Origin: an archaeon
GTDB taxonomy: Archaea > Iainarchaeota > Iainarchaeia > Iainarchaeales > CSSED10-239
Reading direction: 5' to 3'
DNA length: 9,974 bases
NCBI GenBank assembly: GCA_037147375.1
Contig: JBAWVI010000031.1
Span: 1 to 9,974, forward strand
The translations under genes were made by a program, and so were the position numbers. Shown here one piece after another: positions 244-9,430 of this stretch (positions within the stretch are counted from its first letter, which is position 1; the number at the start of each line of letters is the position of its first letter). The notes under the pieces are model-generated. The model was not told the origin of the DNA. It saw only the letters and a list, made by a program, of their open reading frames with translations, and made no database searches.

Positions 244-867
244 CTATTTATATCTATTGGGTATTTTCACATAGTTTGGCAAGATAATTATTTCTCTTGT
301 GAATTTTTCCTTGCTCACTAAATCAAGCTTTATATTCTTTGGAACTAATTGGTTATGTTTAATGTCTGAGAACCTAGCCTCTATTTCCTTAACAAACTTT
401 GGGTTTGAGAGGTTCTCTGTCGTAAACTTAATAGGCAAAGGAACAGAATGTCCTCTCAGACCCATATACCCTTGGAAACTAAAATAATTATCAAAATAAC
501 TCATTGCAAGTTCGCGAAGAGTCTTGTATACTGGATGCCTATATCTTAGCCCAAGAAATTTACTTTGAGCAATAGCTCCATATAATCCTTTCACCTTAAA
601 CACACACAAGACATGATCTTCATCTTTAACAGCAGTTAAATCTATTAAAAAAGTTTTAATCTTATGCTCTTGCAAAACAAAGCAAGCAAACATTGCTGCT
701 TCAAGGCAGTCTCCTTTCTTTTCTCTCATTACATTAAAAACAGATATTCTCTTTCCTGTGTTGTATCCAATTACATTAACAAACTCTTGGATCTTCCAAG
801 GAGCCTTAAGAGAAGTTATTATTCTCTGCTCTTCTTTACTAAAAATATTAAGTTTATTATTCTTCAT
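244..867 (-). CDS. Transglutaminase-like / papain-fold cysteine peptidase superfamily protein (putative)
   Basis: 207-aa ORF. KKGDCLEAAMFACFVL resembles the G-x-C-x-x-x-A nucleophile helix of transglutaminase-like cores. A downstream EDHVLCVF could supply the His, and several Asp residues follow, consistent with a Cys-His-Asp triad. No Shine-Dalgarno-like element is present. A TATA-like box sits about 26 nt upstream of the ATG. Confidence 0.55.
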   Translation of the reverse strand: MKNNKLNIFSKEEQRIITSLKAPWKIQEFVNVIGYNTGKRISVFNVMREKKGDCLEAAMFACFVLQEHKIKTFLIDLTAVKDEDHVLCVFKVKGLYGAIAQSKFLGLRYRHPVYKTLRELAMSYFDNYFSFQGYMGLRGHSVPLPIKFTTENLSNPKFVKEIEARFSDIKHNQLVPKNIKLDLVSKEKFTREIIILPNYVKIPNRYK

Positions 868-1528: not shown

Positions 1529-1551
1529 CTTTCTTTTTTTTCTTATTTTTT
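1529..1551 (+). terminator. Oligo-T tract downstream of 1227-1526
   Basis: tctttcttttttttcttatttttt begins 3 nt after the TAA and contains a T8 run (1534-1541) and a T6 run (1546-1551). Oligo-T is the usual archaeal termination signal. The tract overlaps the 3' end of the convergent vapC. Confidence 0.4.
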
Positions 1552-1974
1552 AATTACTTTTCTTGGATTAATTACTTTAATTCCTTTGATCTTTTTAAAA
1601 TCATTTTCATTAAAAGTGTAAATTGTTGTTATGTTATTGTCCAACATATTCTGTAATAGTAAAGCATCATAAAAGTTTATATTTTTCTCGAAAGATAAGC
1701 TTAATGCATCAGAAACTGTGGATTGATTATAGTGAATTATTTCAAACATATTTTGGATGTTAATAAGATCTTCCTTTAGCTTCTCTTTATCACTTATCTT
1801 TAACTTACCCCTTGTAATATTTGCATATTCTTCTAAGTTTTGGATACTTATACAAGCTTTATGCTCGTTATATAGCTTTAGGATAAGGTTTCTTGCACTC
1901 TCTTTTCTATCTTTATCATTATTTGTGTAAGCTGCAATAAGTACATCTGTATTAATCAAGCATTTATCTACCAT
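1543..1974 (-). CDS. vapC: PIN-domain ribonuclease toxin, VapC family
   Basis: 143 aa. The N-terminal LINTDVLI gives the first PIN acidic residue (D10). NLEEY gives E48/E49, NFYDALLL gives D103, and TFNENDF gives D125. Together these form the conserved acidic quartet in the usual order and spacing. The gene overlaps the upstream antitoxin gene by 11 nt. Confidence 0.8.
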   Translation of the reverse strand: MVDKCLINTDVLIAAYTNNDKDRKESARNLILKLYNEHKACISIQNLEEYANITRGKLKISDKEKLKEDLINIQNMFEIIHYNQSTVSDALSLSFEKNINFYDALLLQNMLDNNITTIYTFNENDFKKIKGIKVINPRKVIKK

Positions 1975-2209
1975 AATAATCAGCTCTTATTTTTGGGTTT
2001 TTTGCTCCCTTTCCTACTTTTGTAGATCCTTCAATTGATGTTAATTTTAAGAAATCTTCAGAAATATTTGCTTTTTCAGTAGCTAGTTTTAATATAGCTT
2101 TGATAATAGTTTTTGAAAGAGCATCCTTTCTATCTCCATAATGTGCTTTAGCTGCATCACGAAGCATTTTTTCAGAAGTCTTATCAAGAGATATTGTAAT
2201 TACACCCAT
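1964..2209 (-). CDS. vapB: Antitoxin, ribbon-helix-helix (VapB-like)
   Basis: 81 aa. The N-terminal ITISLDKTSEKMLRDAAK fits an RHH beta-strand plus helix. It sits immediately upstream of the PIN gene and overlaps it (1964-1974). GAGGGG lies upstream of the ATG. Confidence 0.7.
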   Translation of the reverse strand: MGVITISLDKTSEKMLRDAAKAHYGDRKDALSKTIIKAILKLATEKANISEDFLKLTSIEGSTKVGKGAKNPKIRADYYGR

Positions 2210-2477: not shown

Positions 2478-3008
2478 TTAATTACAGATTCCATCATATG
2501 CGATTGGGACATTATCTGCAACACATTCATTACAATAGGTCTTTCCATCAACTCCACACACGCCAGGACAATCCATTGTACAAATCTTTTCTGGTATTGT
2601 TTTTTCGTAAACCCCATCTTTGCATAACTCTCTCATGAATGCCCATTCTTCACAAGCTGTTCCATTTGCAAAATTACAAATTCCAATCTGCCCAGCTGAT
2701 GTATCTATTATACTTAAAGTTCCACCATTATTTATACAATAAGTAGAAGCTGGATTTGCAATCTGAGTTGTTGGGCAAGAAGTTACTTCCCATCCACAAG
2801 TTTTTTCTGCAGTTAATAAACATCTTCCAGTAGGTCCAGAATAATTTATTCCATCAGGGCACAATATGATTGGTCTATCCATTGCAGGCCCACACTTAGA
2901 TACATCACAAGTACTACCAATTGTTTTTGGTATATAGTTACTCCAGATTAATAATCCAGCAACAACTGCAACCAAAATAACAATTCCAATAATTATTACT
3001 TTATTCAT
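2478..3008 (-). CDS. Secreted or membrane-anchored cysteine-rich protein with DUF333 and Kazal-type inhibitor-like domains
   Basis: The N-terminal signal anchor is MNKVIIIGIVILVAVVAGLLIW. Residues 84-129 (nt 2622-2759), ANPASTYCINNGGTL...GICNF.NGTACEEWAFMRELC, match the DUF333 pattern NPAS.YC...GG...G.C.....C.EWAF.RG.C. Residues 143-175 (nt 2484-2582), CTMDCPGVCGVDGKTYCNECVADNVPIAYDGIC, match the Kazal core [PG]VCG.DG.TY.N.C.A...G.C. I count 16 Cys. Confidence 0.8.
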   Translation of the reverse strand: MNKVIIIGIVILVAVVAGLLIWSNYIPKTIGSTCDVSKCGPAMDRPIILCPDGINYSGPTGRCLLTAEKTCGWEVTSCPTTQIANPASTYCINNGGTLSIIDTSAGQIGICNFANGTACEEWAFMRELCKDGVYEKTIPEKICTMDCPGVCGVDGKTYCNECVADNVPIAYDGICN

Positions 3009-3017
3009 TTAATTTCC
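2974..3017 (-). repeat. Duplicated RBS plus signal-anchor module, copy 1
   Basis: 44 nt match 3253-3296 with one mismatch (2999 c versus 3278 a). The module covers the GGAAATTAA-ATG ribosome-binding region and codons 1-11 (MNK[V/L]IIIGIVI). Confidence 0.8.
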
Positions 3018-3287
3018 CCCTTTTTGTTTAATACAAGTGCCCATCGAATCAGATGTAGTTGGATTTTTCTGCATTTTACATGTATATCCATCTGGACATC
3101 CAAATCCAGCAATTCCTCCACACACACAAACTCCTGTTCCAAATATTATATTTACTCCATAACTTGAATTTCCTGCTTCACAAAATTCTCTTGTAACTGC
3201 TTCTGATTTATATTTTTGTAAAAATAAGAATCCAGAAATCAAGATAGCAATTAAAATAACAATTCCAATAATTATTAATTTATTCAT
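3009..3287 (-). CDS. Small secreted cysteine-rich protein (92 aa)
   Basis: GGAGGAAATTAA precedes the ATG. The signal anchor MNKLIIIGIVILIAILISGFLFL is nearly identical to that of the downstream gene. The mature part has 6 Cys, including CGGIAGFGCPDGYTC. Its stop codon abuts the ATG of 2478-3008 with no gap. Confidence 0.7.
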   Translation of the reverse strand: MNKLIIIGIVILIAILISGFLFLQKYKSEAVTREFCEAGNSSYGVNIIFGTGVCVCGGIAGFGCPDGYTCKMQKNPTTSDSMGTCIKQKGGN

Positions 3288-3296
3288 TTAATTTCC
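3253..3296 (-). repeat. Duplicated RBS plus signal-anchor module, copy 2
   Basis: See 2974-3017. It has the same orientation and lies 279 nt away. Confidence 0.8.
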
Positions 3297-3378
3297 TCCA
3301 TATCCACTGATACCAAATAACTTAACTTCCAAAAGTCTATTAAACCTTATCTTTCTATTATATATAGGGGTTTATTTT

Positions 3379-4767
3379 ATGAAGAACAAAGAAAGATCTA
3401 ATTTTAAAGCTAATAAAAGCATATATGATGTTATAATTGTTGGTGCAGGACCTGCTGGTCTCTTTTGTGCAACAGAAATATCTAAACTAAGTAAAGATAC
3501 TAAAATTTTAATTATTGATAAAGGAAACCTAGTTGAAAACAGAAAAAAGAATGAAGTTATGACTGGTTTTGGAGGAGCAGGTACCTTCTCTGATGGTAAA
3601 CTCCATTTCACTCCAGTTCTTTCTCATGAAAAAATGTTCCATCTTTATTCAAAGGAAGAATATCAAAAATATCTAGATTATGTTGAAGAAGAATTTCTAT
3701 CTTTAGGAGTTCCAAAAGACTATTATCCAAAGAACCTAAAAGAAGCTCAAGAGATGGTTGATAAAGCAGAAAGAAACAATATTAAGCTATTTATTAGAAA
3801 AACAATTCATGTTGGAACAGATAAGCTAGTACCAATCATCAAAAAGATTCAAGATAAGCTAAAGAACAACAAAAACATCACTCTCCTCCCATTAACAGAG
3901 GTTACTGACCTAATTGTTAATAAAAAACAAGTGGAAGGAGTAGTAATTTCTAATGGAAAGAAAGTCTATGGTAAGAAGATAGTTTGTGCTCCAGGAAGAT
4001 ATAATGCTTCTTGGGTTGAAAAAATAACAGATAAATACAAAATAGATAAGGTATTTGATAAGGTTGAAGTTGGAGTAAGAGTTGAATTCCCATCTTCAAT
4101 TAATTCTGCTCATTCAGAGCAAATGTATGAAACTATCTATTATATGTATACTCCAACCTTTGATGATGTTGTAAGAACCTTCTGTCCTTGCCCTAAAGGA
4201 TATGTAGCTTTAGAAGATTATAAAGATTATGTTTGTGTAAATGGATATTCTAACTCAACTAATGATGGAGTTAATTCAAACTTTGCTTTAGTTGTTGAGA
4301 TTAATCTAACAGAACCACTTGAATCTACAAGAAAATATGCTGAGTTCATAGCTCGTGGTGTTACTTTAATAGGTGCAGGTAAACCAATAGTTCAAAGATA
4401 TAAAGATCTTAAAATGGGAAGAAGATCAACTACAGAAAGATTAGGAAATGCACATATTACTCCTTCTTTAAAGGAAGCTGTTCCAGGAGATATTGGAATG
4501 GCTATGCCTTACAGAATAACTAAAGATTTAATTGAAGGAATTGAGATGTTATCAAAGATTCTTCCTGGCCTTAACGGAGATTCAACTTTCCTTTATGCTC
4601 CTGAAGTTAAGTTTAGATCAAATAAGATAAAGACAGATAAGTATCTAGAAACAGATATTAAGAATCTTTATATGCTTGGAGATGGAGCTGGAGTTTCTGG
4701 TAATATAATAGGAGCTGCAATTTCTGGTGTTGTTTGTGGAAGAGGAATCTTACACAAAAAGAAATAA
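3379..4767 (+). CDS. FAD-dependent protein, COG2509-type uncharacterised dehydrogenase family
   Basis: 462 aa. YDVIIVGAGPAGLFCA is a GxGxxG dinucleotide-binding fold, followed by IIDKG. FGGAGTFSDGKL and the C-terminal LGDGAGVSGNIIGAAISGVVCG are typical of this family. AGGGG lies upstream of the ATG. Confidence 0.85.
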   Translation: MKNKERSNFKANKSIYDVIIVGAGPAGLFCATEISKLSKDTKILIIDKGNLVENRKKNEVMTGFGGAGTFSDGKLHFTPVLSHEKMFHLYSKEEYQKYLDYVEEEFLSLGVPKDYYPKNLKEAQEMVDKAERNNIKLFIRKTIHVGTDKLVPIIKKIQDKLKNNKNITLLPLTEVTDLIVNKKQVEGVVISNGKKVYGKKIVCAPGRYNASWVEKITDKYKIDKVFDKVEVGVRVEFPSSINSAHSEQMYETIYYMYTPTFDDVVRTFCPCPKGYVALEDYKDYVCVNGYSNSTNDGVNSNFALVVEINLTEPLESTRKYAEFIARGVTLIGAGKPIVQRYKDLKMGRRSTTERLGNAHITPSLKEAVPGDIGMAMPYRITKDLIEGIEMLSKILPGLNGDSTFLYAPEVKFRSNKIKTDKYLETDIKNLYMLGDGAGVSGNIIGAAISGVVCGRGILHKKK

Positions 4768-4799
4768 TTTATAAACCTAAGTTAACTAAATAATTACTA

Positions 4800-5186
4800 G
4801 TGATATTTATTATGGTTGAGAAACAAGAGCAAGAAAGTGCAGCAGCAGGTGTTGTAGATTTTATTTATAGAACTATTTATGGATTATTATTATCAACAGG
4901 TCTTGTTATCTTAAATAATATAATTGACTTCTTTTGGGGTTCTCAAATAATTCAGATATATATTACAATAACTTCATCAATAATTCTTTCTGCGTATTTT
5001 ATATTTCATAAATTTTCAAAGGTTAGTTTTGTTTATTTACTTGGATGGGTTATTGGATTATTTATTTTATATAAGCTTGATTTATCATTTTTTAGTTTAA
5101 GTATGCAACAATTAGTTTTATGGGTTGTTTTACCAGTAATAATTTTAATAGTTAGAGGAATAACTAGTAGGAAAAGAGGAAATTAG
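4800..5186 (+). CDS. Small polytopic membrane protein, paralog A
   Basis: 128 aa from GTG 4800. ATG 4812 (MVEKQEQ...) is an equally plausible start. It has about four hydrophobic segments. It aligns along its length with the next ORF: FSKVSFVYLLGWVIGLFILYKLDL versus FTKANFFYLVGWIVGIFLLYEAEL. Confidence 0.7.
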   Translation: MIFIMVEKQEQESAAAGVVDFIYRTIYGLLLSTGLVILNNIIDFFWGSQIIQIYITITSSIILSAYFIFHKFSKVSFVYLLGWVIGLFILYKLDLSFFSLSMQQLVLWVVLPVIILIVRGITSRKRGN

Positions 5187-5193
5187 ATTAGAT

Positions 5194-5586
5194 ATGCAAC
5201 CACCAAAACTTTATCATCATGCACATCATACTTGGCATGGAACAACTGCCTTTGTTTTAAAAATTATTAAAAGTTTATTATTGTTAGGTGCACTATTATT
5301 AATTAATGGATTTACTGAATATTTTTTAGGTAAAGAAGTTATATCTTATCTTGCAATTCTTTTAATAACTGTTTTATTTTCAATGTATGCAGTAATTTCT
5401 CATTTCACTAAAGCTAATTTTTTTTATTTAGTTGGATGGATTGTAGGTATATTTTTATTATATGAAGCAGAACTTCCATTCTTAGAGTTTGATGCAATAC
5501 ATCTATCAATCTATATCGGAGTTCCATCAATAATGTTTATAGTTAGATTTATTATGTATCTTTATTCAGATAGAGAAAAATTTTAG
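5194..5586 (+). CDS. Small polytopic membrane protein, paralog B, with a His-rich N-terminus
   Basis: 130 aa, starting 7 nt after the stop of paralog A. It has the same hydrophobic pattern and the conserved GW[VI][VI]G[IL]F[IL]LY core. The N-terminus, YHHAHHTWH (nt 5212-5238), has 5 His in 8 residues (H8-H15). Confidence 0.75.
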   Translation: MQPPKLYHHAHHTWHGTTAFVLKIIKSLLLLGALLLINGFTEYFLGKEVISYLAILLITVLFSMYAVISHFTKANFFYLVGWIVGIFLLYEAELPFLEFDAIHLSIYIGVPSIMFIVRFIMYLYSDREKF

Positions 5587-5602
5587 TAGGTAAGGAATAG
5601 AT

Positions 5603-6247
5603 ATGGCTAAATTAATGAATAAACTAATTGATCCAATATTTAAAAGGAAAATCAATAAACGCTTAGACGCAATTAGAAAAACACATATTGAATCTCTTCC
5701 TAAGAAATCATTTGCAAAGAAATTTCAAGATAAATTTAAATCTCGCAAGGATATGGGAAAAGAGAGAGCATTAATAAGATTTAAAGAAGATAAATCAATG
5801 CATGATATATCTTTAATTAGAAATTTAGGAGGAGCATTAAGTGCAGATTTTTTATTACGAAGAATAGCAAGAAAACATGGTTATAATATAAAAGAAGCAA
5901 CTGATATTCATCAGCATCCAATGTCAGAAAATACAATTTGTAAACCATCAGCTACTGATTTAATTACCTTTGGTGAATTTTATATAGAACACAAAATACA
6001 TAAATTTCAAATTTCATATATGGATAATAATAATATAAAAGAAATTGGAAGAACATATCTTCAAATTAAGCAAGATAAAAGATCAGTACAAGCTTTAATG
6101 AATGAAATTACAAATATTAATAAATTAAATAATAAATCTAGAAAAACCACTGATAATTATAATAATTTAATTGAATGTTTCAACATTAAACAAATTGGGT
6201 TAAATGGATATAAATATAATCTAGAAACAAAAAAGTTTATTAAATAA
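5603..6247 (+). CDS. Hypothetical protein, highly basic N-terminal third, no recognisable domain
   Basis: 214 aa. AGGTAAGGA lies upstream of the ATG. It starts 16 nt after the previous gene and ends 14 nt before the CDPS gene. The N-terminus is Lys/Arg-rich (KRKINKRLDAIRK...KKSFAKKFQDKFKSRK). I recognise no motif. Confidence 0.65.
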   Translation: MAKLMNKLIDPIFKRKINKRLDAIRKTHIESLPKKSFAKKFQDKFKSRKDMGKERALIRFKEDKSMHDISLIRNLGGALSADFLLRRIARKHGYNIKEATDIHQHPMSENTICKPSATDLITFGEFYIEHKIHKFQISYMDNNNIKEIGRTYLQIKQDKRSVQALMNEITNINKLNNKSRKTTDNYNNLIECFNIKQIGLNGYKYNLETKKFIK

Positions 6248-6261
6248 TAATTCTGATTTTC

Positions 6262-6951
6262 ATGCAAATTAAAAATATATTTTCTCCAGATAATAAAATA
6301 TTTACACTGGAAACTATAAAACACAATAATTTCATGCTTGGAATAAGCATAAACAATAAATATTTTACAAAAGATAATATTCATAAATTTATAGATTGGA
6401 TGCTTCAAAATACAGATGGTAAAGTTTGTATTATGATTGTAGATACAATTCAAGCAATTAATAATGAAATCTTAAACCATCAATCTAAAGAAAAAGCATT
6501 AGAGAAAGCAATGAGAGATGCAAAAAAGATACACAATCGTTGTAAATTAATTCTTGATAGCTATTCAAAAATCGAAAAAGATAGATTAGTTATTATAAGA
6601 TGGACAGACATTAATAAAGATCCAGCATATGTTAATAATTTAAAAATCATCAAAGATGAATTTAATCAAAATCCAAAGTTTAAAGAATTTATAATTGGCT
6701 TTGTAAAAAAGCAGTTAGGAGATATAACTAATAGATTAAATACAGATGAAACTACATATATCTCTGATTATTTATTATGTGAAATCCCTGAATTATTAAA
6801 TGGAATAAATTATAATAATACTATATATGATGTTTGTATATATCCAGGTAGTTTTAAAGAACTTATGTTAGGAATATGCACTTTTGAAAAACTAATGTCT
6901 AAACTCAAAATACAAAATAAAAATAAATTTATAGAAATTTATGTGGATTAA
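6262..6951 (+). CDS. Cyclodipeptide synthase (CDPS), a tRNA-dependent diketopiperazine synthase
   Basis: 229 aa. [23 protein letters not shown]...VCIMIVDT aligns without gaps to AlbC ALIGISAGNSYFSQKNTVMLLQW...VVYVDT and to YvmC [34 protein letters not shown] aligns to NYVLAEAPLF and [19 protein letters not shown] aligns to LCYHIDTP and AYHRPWK. The inferred catalytic residues are S29 (nt 6346-6348), Y170, E174 and Y194. Their spacing (141, 4, 20) equals that of AlbC S37/Y178/E182/Y202. Reference sequences are recalled from memory. Confidence 0.85.
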   Translation: [229 protein letters not shown]

Positions 6952-6953
6952 AT

Positions 6954-7406
6954 ATGATAAAATTTACTTGGGAAGATATAGAAAAATATTCTTTTGAATT
7001 ACTTAAAAAATTTAATAAATCTAAACTTAAATTTGATTATATTATTGGTATTAATAGAGGTGGATTAATTCCTGCTTTAATTATTTCTAATCAGCTTGAT
7101 TCTAAGCTTATTTGTATTGGAGCAAAATCATATAACGGAAAGAAAAGAAATAAGCTAAATATATATAGTTATCCTATTGTCAATCTAAGAAATAAGAATG
7201 TATTAATAATTGATGAAATTTGTGATACGGGGATTACGTTAAATACTATAAAAAAGAAAGTTAAACAGAAGTACAATCCAAAGCAAATAATTACTTCTTC
7301 TTTAATCATAAATAAGCTAAACTGCAAGATTTATCCTGATTTTCATGTAATTGAGATCGAAAATAAGACTAAAGAATGGATTGGATTTCCTTGGGATAAA
7401 AAATAG
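6954..7406 (+). CDS. Type I phosphoribosyltransferase, Gpt-like (xanthine-guanine PRTase family / COG2236)
   Basis: 150 aa. The PRPP-binding motif is VLIIDEICDTGITL (nt 7200-7241). The layout resembles E. coli Gpt: N-terminal FTWEDI (Gpt VTWDML), IIGINRGGLIPA (Gpt IIAVSRGGLVPG), SY in the flexible loop, and C-terminal EWIGFPWD (Gpt TWIEQPWD). The ATG is 2 nt after the CDPS stop codon. Confidence 0.8.
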   Translation: MIKFTWEDIEKYSFELLKKFNKSKLKFDYIIGINRGGLIPALIISNQLDSKLICIGAKSYNGKKRNKLNIYSYPIVNLRNKNVLIIDEICDTGITLNTIKKKVKQKYNPKQIITSSLIINKLNCKIYPDFHVIEIENKTKEWIGFPWDKK

Positions 7407-7440: not shown

Positions 7441-7462
7441 AGAACATCATTTCTGATGTTCT
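7441..7462. terminator. Hairpin between the convergent PRTase gene and ftsZ (9-bp stem, 4-nt loop)
   Basis: AGAACATCA-tttc-TGATGTTCT is perfectly complementary, and extra AGG/CCT pairing is possible at 7436-7438 with 7465-7467. On the minus strand it is followed by CATTTCTTTTT. On the plus strand it is preceded by TTTTTGATTTT (7414-7424). Confidence 0.55.
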
Positions 7463-7475
7463 TTCCTATTTAGAT

Positions 7476-8579
7476 TTATAATTCGTCAAGTCCGAAGTCG
7501 TTATCGTAAGATCTTCTTGAGCCGCCTTTTGCTGCTTGTTGATTGTTCTTACCATTGAATCTTGTACTTCCTTTGATGAATGGAGACTTAACTCCTGTGA
7601 AGATAGCAATTACTTCAATCTTGTTATCGAATGTGGGATCTATTCTAGCACCCCAGATAACATTTGCGTTTGGATCGATTTCGTCTGTTAACATTTCACC
7701 AACAGCATTTGCTTCTCCAAGTGTTAACTCAGCTCCGCCTGTAATGTGTATTAAACATCCAGATGCTCCTCCGATATCAACATCTAATAAAGCGTTCTTT
7801 AATGTGTCTTCAACAACTTCTTCAACCTTATTAACTGATTGTGATTCTCCAACAGCAATAACTGATAATCCTTTACCGCCCATTACTGTTCTAATATCAG
7901 CGTAATCTAAGTTAATTAATGAAGGTTGTGTAATTGTTTCTGTAATTCCTCTAATTGTTCTTGCAATTACTTCATCAGCAACTTTGAAAGCATCTTGTAC
8001 TGGTAAGTTTGGAACTAATTCAACTAATCTATTGTTATCAATGATTATGATTGTATCACAAACATCCTTTAATACATCAATTCCTTCTTCAGCCTTCTTA
8101 GCTCTTGCTCTTTCAAGTACGAATGGGAATGTAACTATAGCAATAACGATTGCTCCTTGTTGTTTAGCTATTTGAGCAACTACTGGAGATGCTCCTGTTC
8201 CTGTTCCTCCACCCATTCCAGATGTTATGAATAATAAATCTACACCATCAAGTATTTCTTCAAGTGCACCCTTTGAAACTTCAGCAGCCTTAGCTCCGAT
8301 TTCTGGATAAGCTCCTGCACCAAGTCCGTTTGTTATTGATTTTCCGATTAATAATTTAGTTATGTCATCAGATATTATTCCTAAATGTTGTCTATCTGTG
8401 TTAACAGCTACTATGTGTGCTCCAGCAACTCCCATTGCTGCAATTCTATTTACAGAGTTATTACCAGCACCACCAACACCAACTACCATGATCTTTGGAG
8501 CTGCAAATTCCTCATCCTTTGAGAAAGATGCAGTGTTTTCTGATTTATCATTTATTGCTTTTGATACAATTGACTTCAT
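7476..8579 (-). CDS. ftsZ: Cell division GTPase FtsZ (archaeal FtsZ1-type)
   Basis: Motifs present are VGVGGAGNN, the tubulin signature [12 protein letters not shown], the T7 loop [11 protein letters not shown], and the archaeal-type [22 protein letters not shown] and [13 protein letters not shown]. The ORF track starts at GTG 8588. I prefer ATG 8579 (MKSIV...) because AGGTG (8590-8586) then lies 6 nt upstream. Confidence 0.95.
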
Positions 8580-8872
8580 CTTATACACCTTTTTTTTATT
8601 TTTTTTGTTTTTTATTAATAATATTTTAATATTATTTCAACCTATTTTAACCCCTTTGTTTGATAATCTTTTAAAAGTTATACTGATGTTTCTATAATGA
8701 AATTCCGATTAAAGGCAGATTTTCTAATATAATTTGTATAACTCCGTTTACGTTAAAATAATATCTTTGATATTATAAATTAGGACAAATACTTTTTAAA
8801 TAGATATTATGCATAATCTTTTTGAAAAACTAATTAAAATATATTAAAATTTGAATCAAAGTTGGGAATTAC

Positions 8873-9430
8873 ATGTATAAATTATTGTTTATTGTTGTGT
8901 ATGTTTTAATCTATTACTATCTAATTTATAGATTAACTAGAAAGCATATGGATACTACTACAGAAACAATAAATATGTTTAAAACTGATTTTTATACTTC
9001 TCAATACTTTGTAAGCTTTTTCATTCTAGCTTTATTTTCTTTAATATATTATATATTTTATACTAATTTATTCACATTTACTGTCCAAGATATTGTGTTT
9101 TCTATAGTGATTATTTTTTCTGGTTTAATAGAATATAATGCAATTAAAAATCTTGCAGAAAACTATTATCCTCAAATTGGACCTGAAAAAAGATTAGTTA
9201 CAAGTGGTATCTATTCATTGATTAGACATCCAATTTATTTATCTGCTTTAGTTTTAGGCTTAGGTCTCTATGCTCTTCTTGCTTTAAATATTTTAATGTA
9301 TACTTACCCTCTACTAATCATTTCAGTAGTAATAAAAGTAGAACAAGAAGATAAATATCTAACTAAAAGATTTAAAGCATACAATAAATATAAGACTAAA
9401 AGCTATAAGTTAATTCCTTATATCTATTAA
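8873..9430 (+). CDS. Isoprenylcysteine carboxyl methyltransferase (ICMT) / phospholipid methyltransferase family membrane protein
   Basis: 185 aa with multiple TM segments. RLVTSGIYSLIRHPIYLSALVLGLG matches the family core L.T.G.Y...RHP.Y. Confidence 0.7.
   Translation: MYKLLFIVVYVLIYYYLIYRLTRKHMDTTTETINMFKTDFYTSQYFVSFFILALFSLIYYIFYTNLFTFTVQDIVFSIVIIFSGLIEYNAIKNLAENYYPQIGPEKRLVTSGIYSLIRHPIYLSALVLGLGLYALLALNILMYTYPLLIISVVIKVEQEDKYLTKRFKAYNKYKTKSYKLIPYIY

Follow-up and report, generated by a model that had tools for sequence, protein, structure and literature searches.

A cyclodipeptide synthase gene and a predicted JAMM/MPN-like hydrolase gene in an accessory cassette beside ftsZ of an Iainarchaeales archaeon

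Introduction

The 9,974-nucleotide (nt) stretch at positions 1-9,974 of contig JBAWVI010000031.1 (assembly GCA_037147375.1, an archaeon of the Iainarchaeales) is referred to here in its full length as the window (G+C ~28%). Its plus strand carries six genes, at 3379-4767, 4800/4812-5186, 5194-5586, 5603-6247, 6262-6951 and 6954-7406, which encode a flavin adenine dinucleotide (FAD)-dependent protein, two small membrane proteins (TM1 and TM2), a protein termed the orphan (JAB in gene arrangements), a cyclodipeptide synthase (CDPS) and a phosphoribosyltransferase (PRTase). A first-pass annotation had proposed that all six form one diketopiperazine cluster. Comparison with related genomes shows the block to be composite: the FAD gene and the TM1-TM2 pair form a backbone, and the CDPS and the orphan, a predicted JAMM-like hydrolase, belong to a dispensable cassette that would be read through from the TM1-TM2 promoter. 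We hold this reading as a whole with a confidence slightly above even. What stands of the proposal is a real CDPS in an operon-like block and its link to the orphan; the membership of the FAD gene, TM1, TM2 and the PRTase gene does not stand.

The coordinates of the open reading frames (ORFs) bear out the described layout of six co-directional genes, with gaps in order of 32 nt (44 nt from ATG 4812), 7, 16, 14 and 2 nt. Against the nearest relative, all six have ratios of nonsynonymous to synonymous substitution rates (dN/dS) of 0.06-0.17, which is purifying selection; they are real genes. The identities assigned to the FAD protein, the CDPS and the PRTase are each above the Pfam cut-off. A family-profile scan of the window agrees with the earlier observation that the block lacks the known CDPS tailoring enzymes: no AlbA/B-type cyclodipeptide oxidase, P450, prenyltransferase or 2-oxoglutarate oxygenase is present in it, and the sole methyltransferase of the window is the product of an ICMT-like gene of the ICMT family at 8873-9430, beyond ftsZ.

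Gene arrangements in related genomes

Loci of relatives (L-numbers) were gathered through the exact proteins and their homologues, a metagenome scan, the FtsZ cluster and a CDPS-profile scan of GTDB species genomes, and all retrieved loci were annotated with purpose-built profiles. Close relatives, in which FtsZ is 96-98% identical to that of the window, have at least five arrangements at this locus. The order FAD-TM1-TM2-orphan-CDPS-PRTase-hairpin-ftsZ, with ftsZ convergent, is found in window/L001/L058 and in L054/L005. In L002/L003/L004/L056, an opposite-strand regulator-like gene and a gene for a 137-amino-acid (aa) membrane protein precede TM1-TM2-orphan-orphan-CDPS-hairpin-ftsZ; the 7 kb upstream contain no FAD gene, and the PRTase gene is missing. 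L011/L060 have the order 137-aa protein-TM1-TM2-orphan-CDPS. In L008/L009/L057, the FAD gene and two opposite-strand genes are followed by TM1-TM2-239-aa protein-orphan-orphan-hairpin-ftsZ, with neither a Pfam CDPS nor a PRTase. The fifth arrangement, FAD-protein X-TM1-TM2-ftsZ, is that of L065-67 (GCA_964496765.1) and L068-69, where no orphan, CDPS, CDPS-fold gene or PRTase gene lies within 10 kb.

The orphan, in one or two copies, is present in all three CDPS-bearing arrangements and missing where the CDPS is missing, such that orphan and CDPS-fold gene are either both present or both absent in the close relatives. Among the proposed partners, only the orphan co-varies with the CDPS in these genomes. 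The first-pass annotation had asked whether the CDPS always travels with the genes at 4800-6247 and with the PRTase gene. Within the clade the orphan does so; TM1 and TM2 also occur without the CDPS (L065-L069), and L002/L004/L056 possess the CDPS with neither a PRTase gene nor an adjacent FAD gene. FAD, TM1 and TM2 keep the same order by ftsZ in L065-67 and L068-69, which have no CDPS; this is a situation that the first-pass annotation had itself named as refuting the cluster, and by it these three are backbone genes. Only window/L001, L005 and L054 possess the PRTase gene, which L002, L004, L008 and L065-69 lack; the gene is a lineage-specific passenger of the window's lineage. The cassette between TM2 and the hairpin thus comprises here the orphan, the CDPS and the Gpt-like PRTase genes, and its functional unit, as far as co-variation indicates, would be the CDPS and the JAMM-like protein.

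These arrangements bear directly on the idea of a single six-gene diketopiperazine cluster, in which redox tailoring would fall to the FAD protein and export or immunity to the membrane pair, with the orphan and the PRTase as further partners. Its appeal lies in the co-directional, tightly spaced and hairpin-closed layout, in the position of the FAD gene immediately before TM1 in the window and L054, and in the recurrence of FAD-linked oxidases and DUF202 small membrane proteins near bacterial CDPS genes (PMC5767969). The idea is nevertheless very improbable: the order of FAD, TM1 and TM2 by ftsZ is kept in relatives without a CDPS, the FAD gene is missing upstream in L002 and separated from TM1 by two opposite-strand genes in L008, the PRTase gene is missing in L002, L004 and L008, and a conserved promoter-like block lies between FAD and TM1. 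Moreover, a set of 38 more distant CDPS loci in DPANN and candidate phyla radiation (CPR) genomes (26-39% identity) has no homologue of TM1, TM2, the FAD protein or the PRTase within 6 kb at any locus.

A trace of the cassette is present in one of the loci without it. Just after the TM2 stop codon of L068, in the spacer between TM2 and ftsZ (11130-11175, minus strand), lies a ~34-nt relic, AAAGAATGGATTGGTTTTCCTTGGGAT, which would encode KEWIGFPWD and is nearly identical to the 3' end of the PRTase gene of the window. The simplest account would be one deletion that took the orphan, the CDPS and most of the PRTase gene from a window-type ancestor. Given this relic, the cassette is dispensable, and its absence in the L068 lineage would be secondary. 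L065 seemingly contains a more decayed version of the same relic.

Two further proteins of these loci are noted. Protein X of L065 and L068 (213-217 aa) is helical and unrelated; that it could be a degenerate orphan was ruled out, as it has no similarity. The 137-aa membrane protein, which is encoded before TM1 in place of the FAD gene (L002 7286-7699 and L011 758-1171, both plus strand), contains the motif PDFDSNHS and has no Pfam or NCBIfam match.

A second kind of CDPS-fold gene beside the orphan

Among the arguments for a joint function of the orphan and a CDPS-fold enzyme, the strongest is the replacement seen in L008. The slot of the CDPS is occupied there by a gene for a 239-aa protein (4976-5695, plus strand; family P0011-P0084, alignment A4), which has no Pfam CDPS match. 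Direct sequence links to CDPSs were sought by BLASTP, by a four-sequence profile (probability 1.9%) and by PDB sequence searches, all of which failed. The AlphaFold2 (AF2) model of the protein (pLDDT 89.9) has CDPSs as all of its 39 best PDB matches, with a best E of 9e-7 and a TM-score of ~0.5-0.65 depending on normalisation; the tryptophanyl- and tyrosyl-tRNA synthetases TrpRS and TyrRS are among the matches below the CDPSs. Alignment of a 40-sequence CDPS profile with the profile of the 239-aa family by hhalign gives a probability of 79% and an E of 1.6e-5. The family further keeps a Ser that terminates the first strand, a Glu-Glu within a late helix and a Tyr-Pro-Gly that follows a late strand. 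From the model and the profile comparison, it is predicted with high confidence that this family has the cyclodipeptide-synthase fold, and in L008 a second kind of CDPS-fold gene would then have replaced the canonical CDPS beside retained orphan paralogues.

The family comprises at least 74 clusters in DPANN and CPR genomes, among them Pacearchaeota, Woesearchaeota, Moranbacteria and Kerfeldbacteria, with proteins of ~235 aa and 42-52% identity. It has no Pfam or NCBIfam model, and current CDPS profiles miss it. Elsewhere (L012, L014) its genes stand alone in varied contexts, with no TM or orphan neighbours.

Another, independent hint of the link between CDPS and orphan is provided by L024, a Woesearchaeota contig on which an orphan-family member (E 1e-7, HQHP...PSEAD) is located 740 nt upstream of a CDPS of 35% identity, with one gene between. 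The intervening gene encodes 145 aa with a hydrophobic N-terminus and no Pfam or NCBIfam match. At its N-terminus, the orphan-family member itself (2888-3589, plus strand) is hydrophobic and lipobox-like (…FLISWAC…), the basic helical extension being absent, and for this reason it may act outside the cell.

The cyclodipeptide synthase

The CDPS (6262-6951, plus strand) is by its sequence an intact XYP-type enzyme of the ParcuCDPS clade, with scores of 78.6 bits for TIGR04539 (cut-off 45) and 48.2 bits for PF16715 (cut-off 27). Its nearest relatives in named genomes are from Woesearchaeota, Pacearchaeota, Nanoarchaeota and CPR bacteria. The nearest solved relatives are the ParcuCDPS structures 7QAY, 7QAW and 7QB8 (E 3e-21 to 4e-21, ~30% identity). 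The predicted catalytic equivalents, namely Ser29 (the nucleophile), Asn32, Asp61, Tyr170, Glu174 and Tyr194-Pro195, are present in the window and in all 40 clade members. Of these, Ser29, Tyr170, Glu174 and Tyr194 correspond to S26, Y167, E171 and Y191 of ParcuCDPS, where Asp58 is the counterpart of Asp61, and to S37, Y178, E182 and Y202 of AlbC; the roles of the residues are taken from PMC7613923. The signature of the NYH subfamily is Asn40, Tyr202 and His203, and that of the XYP subfamily Tyr202 and Pro203, so that Tyr194-Pro195 assigns the enzyme, like all 40 clade members, to the XYP type.

ParcuCDPS of Parcubacteria bacterium RAAC4_OD1_1 (PDB 7QB8), which produces cyclo(His-Pro) and cyclo(His-Glu) (PMC5816076, PMC7613923), is also the closest functional reference. 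The two enzymes share the XYP type, the same Ser, Asn, Tyr, Glu and Tyr-Pro, and the unusual Asp partner of the serine, and both are from ultra-small symbiont-type genomes. In the His-recognising pocket, one of the three residues is kept, Glu177 (Glu174 of ParcuCDPS), and the others are Met58 (Tyr55) and Cys192 (Tyr189). Because two of the three pocket residues differ and the combination Glu177/Met58/Cys192 is unique to the window's group, the product of the CDPS is not predictable. The ParcuCDPS locus (L043) differs as well, in that it has no JAB-family, TM1/TM2, FAD or PRTase neighbour.

The orphan

The orphan (5603-6247, plus strand) had been described as a domain-less basic protein. It is basic, with a pI of 10.0 overall and 10.7 for residues 1-55, and has no Pfam or NCBIfam match; domain-less no longer fits, since the protein resembles a divergent JAMM/MPN-type metallohydrolase. 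Its family is very small, with six 90% clusters among 5.8 billion proteins, and 18 members were recovered at E up to 0.001 when 1.84 billion representatives were searched exhaustively with HMMER. In these 18 members His103, His105 and Asp119 are invariant, Ser116, Glu147, Gly149 and Arg150 are nearly so, and Glu54 is retained wherever the N-terminal part exists. The resulting motif, E54, H103-x-H105, S116 and D119, is the E...HxH...SxxD motif of JAMM proteins.

In the AF2 model of the orphan (pLDDT 82.8, pTM 0.80), HxH closes a strand and SxxD opens the helix that follows, which is the placement known from JAMM enzymes. With this model as query, Foldseek ranks ~30 JAB/MPN proteins (BRCC36, Rpn11, AMSH/Sst2, RadC; probability up to 0.99) among its 33 best matches in the PDB, albeit at weak E-values and TM-scores, and the matches in BFVD include MPN and RadC proteins. 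One family member each gives a weak Pfam match to Toxin-JAB1 (E 0.0056) and to RadC (E 0.11); a search of PDB sequences with the family profile returned chance matches only. The orphan thus resembles JAMM/MPN+ proteins (Rpn11, BRCC36, AMSH; in prokaryotes RadC-like and Toxin-JAB1) in carrying Glu...His-x-His...Ser-x-x-Asp on a strand-loop-helix, and differs from them in the spacing of the motif, in an additional conserved E-x-G-R motif, in its basic helical N-terminal extension of ~55 residues and in the size of its family. On motif and model, we consider it a divergent JAMM/MPN+-like metallohydrolase with substantial, if incomplete, confidence. Prokaryotic JAMM systems are typically linked to a ubiquitin-like or sulfur-carrier protein or an E1-like enzyme. 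No ubiquitin-like, sulfur-carrier or E1-like gene is present in the window or the related loci inspected, and the usual prokaryotic JAMM context is therefore missing.

Several properties of the orphan would suit a module for conflict or host interaction of an episymbiotic archaeon, with JAB-like effectors or toxins of protease or nuclease type, a CDPS-fold enzyme acting on the aminoacyl-tRNA pool or producing a signal, and the membrane pair for immunity or delivery. Orphan genes are often tandem-duplicated (L002, L008, L064) and diverge far faster (40-52% identity) than FtsZ (96-98%) and the FAD protein (84-91%). The content of the cassette varies between near-identical backbones and is deletable, its G+C of 0.22-0.24 is below that of the FAD gene (0.32) and ftsZ (0.37), and the lowest-E Pfam match of any orphan-family member is that to Toxin-JAB1. 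Against such a role, a PADLOC search gave no defence model for the orphan, the CDPS or the TM pair, the CDPS and orphan profiles have no relatives on IMG/VR viral contigs, the dN/dS of 0.13-0.17 is purifying and not diversifying, and the orphan of the window has no secretion signal or toxin-delivery domain. We regard this explanation as rather improbable. A viral or mobile origin of the cassette was rejected on the same IMG/VR result, and a PADLOC match of the PRTase to ShosT (E 2.6e-6, 25 bits) is a weak match of the loop that binds phosphoribosyl pyrophosphate (PRPP) and was taken as generic.

Backbone genes and the PRTase

The FAD gene (3379-4767, plus strand) encodes a COG2509-like FAD-dependent oxidoreductase with an FAD-depend_C domain (PF21688, 53.7 bits; cut-off 27), which is 84-97% identical to the versions of the relatives. 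It is a backbone neighbour outside the cassette.

TM1 (4812-5186, 124 aa) and TM2 (5194-5586, 130 aa), both on the plus strand, have ~4 hydrophobic stretches each and are paralogues (BLASTP, 30% identity over 82 aa, E 2e-16), as was proposed for a duplicated pair with four transmembrane (TM) segments. The true start of TM1 is likely ATG 4812 and not GTG 4800, since the start ATGGTTGA(G/A)AA is kept in L054, L065 and L068 and agrees with the 124-aa product called by NCBI. TM1 is fast-evolving, with 48-66% identity between lineages. Neither protein has a Pfam, NCBIfam or PDB relative, the best match being MrpE at E 0.14; assignment to DUF202 or to lycopene-cyclase-type small membrane proteins was tried and gave no match.

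Among cassette-bearing genomes the identity of TM2 is 83-95%, as against 67-74% where at least one of the two genomes compared is cassette-less. This is unlike the FAD protein and TM1, which place the window nearer to the cassette-less group, and the pattern, from six sequences, hints at a coupling of TM2 to the cassette. TM2 retains all its conserved motifs in genomes without the cassette. The N-terminus of TM2 is His-rich, LYHHAHHTWHG in the window; its homologues (alignment A12) have an invariant LYHHA(H/K)HT N-terminus and an invariant core, FTKANFFYLVGWIVG, which suggests a metal-related or catalytic function in the membrane.

The PRTase gene (6954-7406, plus strand), the last of the block, encodes a small type I enzyme of 150 aa that is Gpt/XPRT-like (PF00156, 70.4 bits; cut-off 26.3), and the PRPP-binding loop VLIIDEICDTGITL is readable in its translation. 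No equivalog model is matched at its cut-off; the best is xanthine PRTase PRK09177 (68.4 bits, cut-off 138), followed by HGPRTase (47.4 bits, cut-off 150).

Promoter-like block and hairpin

Between the FAD gene and TM1 lies a promoter-like block (4768-4804, plus strand), which consists of the TATA-like TTTATAAA at 4768-4775, the string from which an internal promoter had been suspected, and TAGTGAT at 4798-4804, 7 nt before ATG 4812. The region upstream of TM1 can be aligned in the window, L054, L002, L011, L008, L065 and L068 with the consensus TTT(A/T)(T/A)AAA, ~21-22 nt, TAGTGAT, 7-11 nt and ATG, and the gene ahead of it varies: the FAD gene, the 137-aa membrane protein gene, a divergent GKRP-like gene or the gene for protein X. 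The TTTATAAA 8-mer is not enriched in the AT-rich window (10 matches versus 13.2 expected), and hence only the conservation in relatives and the distance to the start count as promoter evidence. The block fits an archaeal TATA box with a short leader for TM1, and its conservation lends weight to the suspicion of an internal promoter. As it is conserved whatever lies upstream, the most economical reading would make the FAD gene a separate transcription unit. A scan for bacterial sigma-70 sites found fewer sites than in shuffled sequences; its consensus is bacterial and not meaningful for an archaeon.

The 16-nt gap between TM2 and the orphan contains no comparable promoter-like element, and the cassette gaps are only 16, 14 and 2 nt; the cassette is for these reasons probably read through from the TM1 promoter. 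At the other end, the hairpin reported at 7441-7462 (plus strand) is found there, between the block and the convergent ftsZ. It has a 9-bp stem and a 4-nt loop (AGAACATCA-TTTC-TGATGTTCT) and is followed by a T-rich tract; the 69-nt spacer that contains it folds at -16.9 kcal/mol (z -2.87). The hairpin is kept with compensatory stem changes in L054, L002 and L008, whether the last gene is that of the PRTase, the CDPS or the orphan, and is missing from the TM2-ftsZ spacer of the cassette-less L065 and L068. It accordingly travels with the cassette, and is likely the terminator of its transcript. By comparison among these loci, the region consists of a backbone, namely the FAD gene and a TM1-TM2 bicistron with its own TATA-like promoter beside the convergent ftsZ, and an accessory cassette.

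Proposed mechanism and its alternatives

In the proposed mechanism, two aminoacyl-tRNAs would be delivered to the CDPS, and Ser29 would be acylated with the assistance of Asp61, as in ParcuCDPS; a dipeptidyl-enzyme would then form and a cyclodipeptide would be released. Since the equivalent of Glu174 of ParcuCDPS is kept as Glu177, the first substrate may be polar or basic. The JAMM-like protein could act as a zinc-dependent amide hydrolase on the product or an intermediate of the CDPS, for example to open the ring or to set a dipeptide free, the substrate being a guess. A role of its basic helical N-terminus in binding tRNA or the CDPS is possible. TM1 and TM2 may export or anchor the system, yet would also function without the cassette. 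The PRTase, most likely an enzyme of purine salvage, would share the transcript, and the FAD protein would be an unrelated neighbour.

A number of observations weigh against this composite reading and its pairing of CDPS and hydrolase. In the orphan, the spacer from HxH to S has 10 residues instead of the usual 7, the Foldseek scores are weak (best E 1.7e-3, TM-score 0.3-0.5), and the curated JAB profiles PF01398, PF14464, PF04002 and PF15659 remain below threshold throughout the 18-member family. The chemistry and the substrate of the hydrolase are conjectural, and promoter, read-through and terminator are predictions from sequence alone. The cassette-bearing loci except L024 are all from one narrow clade, and most of the co-occurrence is hence shared descent. 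A JAB-family neighbour is missing at 37 of the 38 related CDPS loci. Furthermore, a more distant orphan-family member in L061 is located between a GNAT and a methyltransferase gene (arrangement at 5407-7342), with no CDPS nearby.

The last three points equally favour the view that the CDPS stands alone and makes an unmodified cyclodipeptide, the orphan and the other genes being unrelated and adjacent only through the compactness of the genome and shared descent. All-against-all clustering of the neighbours of the 38 loci found no strongly recurrent partner, the sole repeat being a GNAT at four loci, and a single genus-level group accounts for all cassette-bearing loci but one. This view is unlikely, though, in light of L008, where the slot holds a different CDPS-fold gene while the orphans stay, which makes chance adjacency improbable. 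In addition, the L024 adjacency is independent, orphan and CDPS were lost together, and, given how extremely rare the orphan family is, chance would not be expected to place its genes beside CDPS-fold genes repeatedly.

Regarding the GNAT-type acetyltransferases, the genes are located directly beside the CDPS in L019 (6726-7181), L023 (6679-7107), L036 (5507-5947) and L037 (6624-7178). A GNAT link between CDPS and orphan loci was rejected, as the L061 GNAT is not clearly of the same family as that of the four loci (best pairwise E 0.001). More distant orphan-family members are also present as tandem paralogues in L064 (1-1156), with no CDPS nearby.

The preferred reading of a backbone with a CDPS-hydrolase cassette can be extended to a hitherto unknown two-enzyme tRNA-dependent peptide pathway in DPANN archaea, which we consider possible but doubtful. 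In such a pathway the JAMM hydrolase would open or edit the diketopiperazine or free the dipeptidyl intermediate to give, in place of a cyclodipeptide, a dipeptide in linear or conjugated form; the P0011-type family and the canonical CDPS would be interchangeable, and in the window's lineage the PRTase might ribosylate a histidine-type product.

Neighbouring genes of the window

In the mechanical ORF list, the convergent ftsZ (7476-8588, minus strand) has GTG 8588 as its start (370 aa); on record its product begins at 8579 (367 aa), which is the sequence found in the public collection. Over its full length, FtsZ matches the TIGR00065 equivalog (389 bits). Upstream of the block, a gene for a 143-aa PIN-domain protein (1543-1974, minus strand) overlaps the upstream 81-aa gene (1964-2209, minus strand) by 11 nt; the pair looks like a VapBC-type toxin-antitoxin system and keeps its position in L065 and L068. 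The products of the adjacent genes at 2478-3008 and 3009-3287, both on the minus strand, are rich in cysteine and have a membrane or signal segment at the N-terminus. The product of the former has a DUF333 match on record, to which relatives add a Kazal-type inhibitor domain (L065). The 207-aa product of 244-867 (minus strand) has a sub-threshold vasohibin match (E 8.6e-5, 22.4 bits; cut-off 24). RNA gene searches found no tRNA or Rfam family in the window.

Relation to known systems and significance

To our knowledge, CDPS pathways are known almost entirely from bacteria, with oxidases, P450s and transferases as partners. The characterised clusters, such as those of albonoursin (AlbA/B/C), pulcherrimin (YvmC-CypX), mycocyclosin (Rv2275-CYP121) and the methylated or prenylated diketopiperazines, consist of a small CDPS co-transcribed with at least one dedicated partner, which is the organisation that we infer here. 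Small membrane proteins near CDPS genes also have a precedent in DUF202 (PMC5767969). The difference lies in the partner, which is an oxidase, P450, methyltransferase, prenyltransferase or 2-oxoglutarate oxygenase in those clusters and a predicted hydrolase here, and in the DPANN-type archaeal host. No description of a pairing of a CDPS with a JAB/JAMM-type hydrolase was found in the literature searched, and such a pairing would be a new variant of the CDPS pathway.

The comparison also illustrates that close gene spacing, when the genome is compact, predicts too many cluster members, as a backbone or passenger role better explains four of the six genes proposed, and it reveals a CDPS-fold family that is missed by current profile libraries. 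If the hydrolase is indeed a partner of the CDPS, it would represent a new type of downstream CDPS chemistry. It would also provide the first functional handle on the CDPS genes of ultra-small symbiotic archaea and bacteria, in which cyclodipeptides could act in the interaction with the host.

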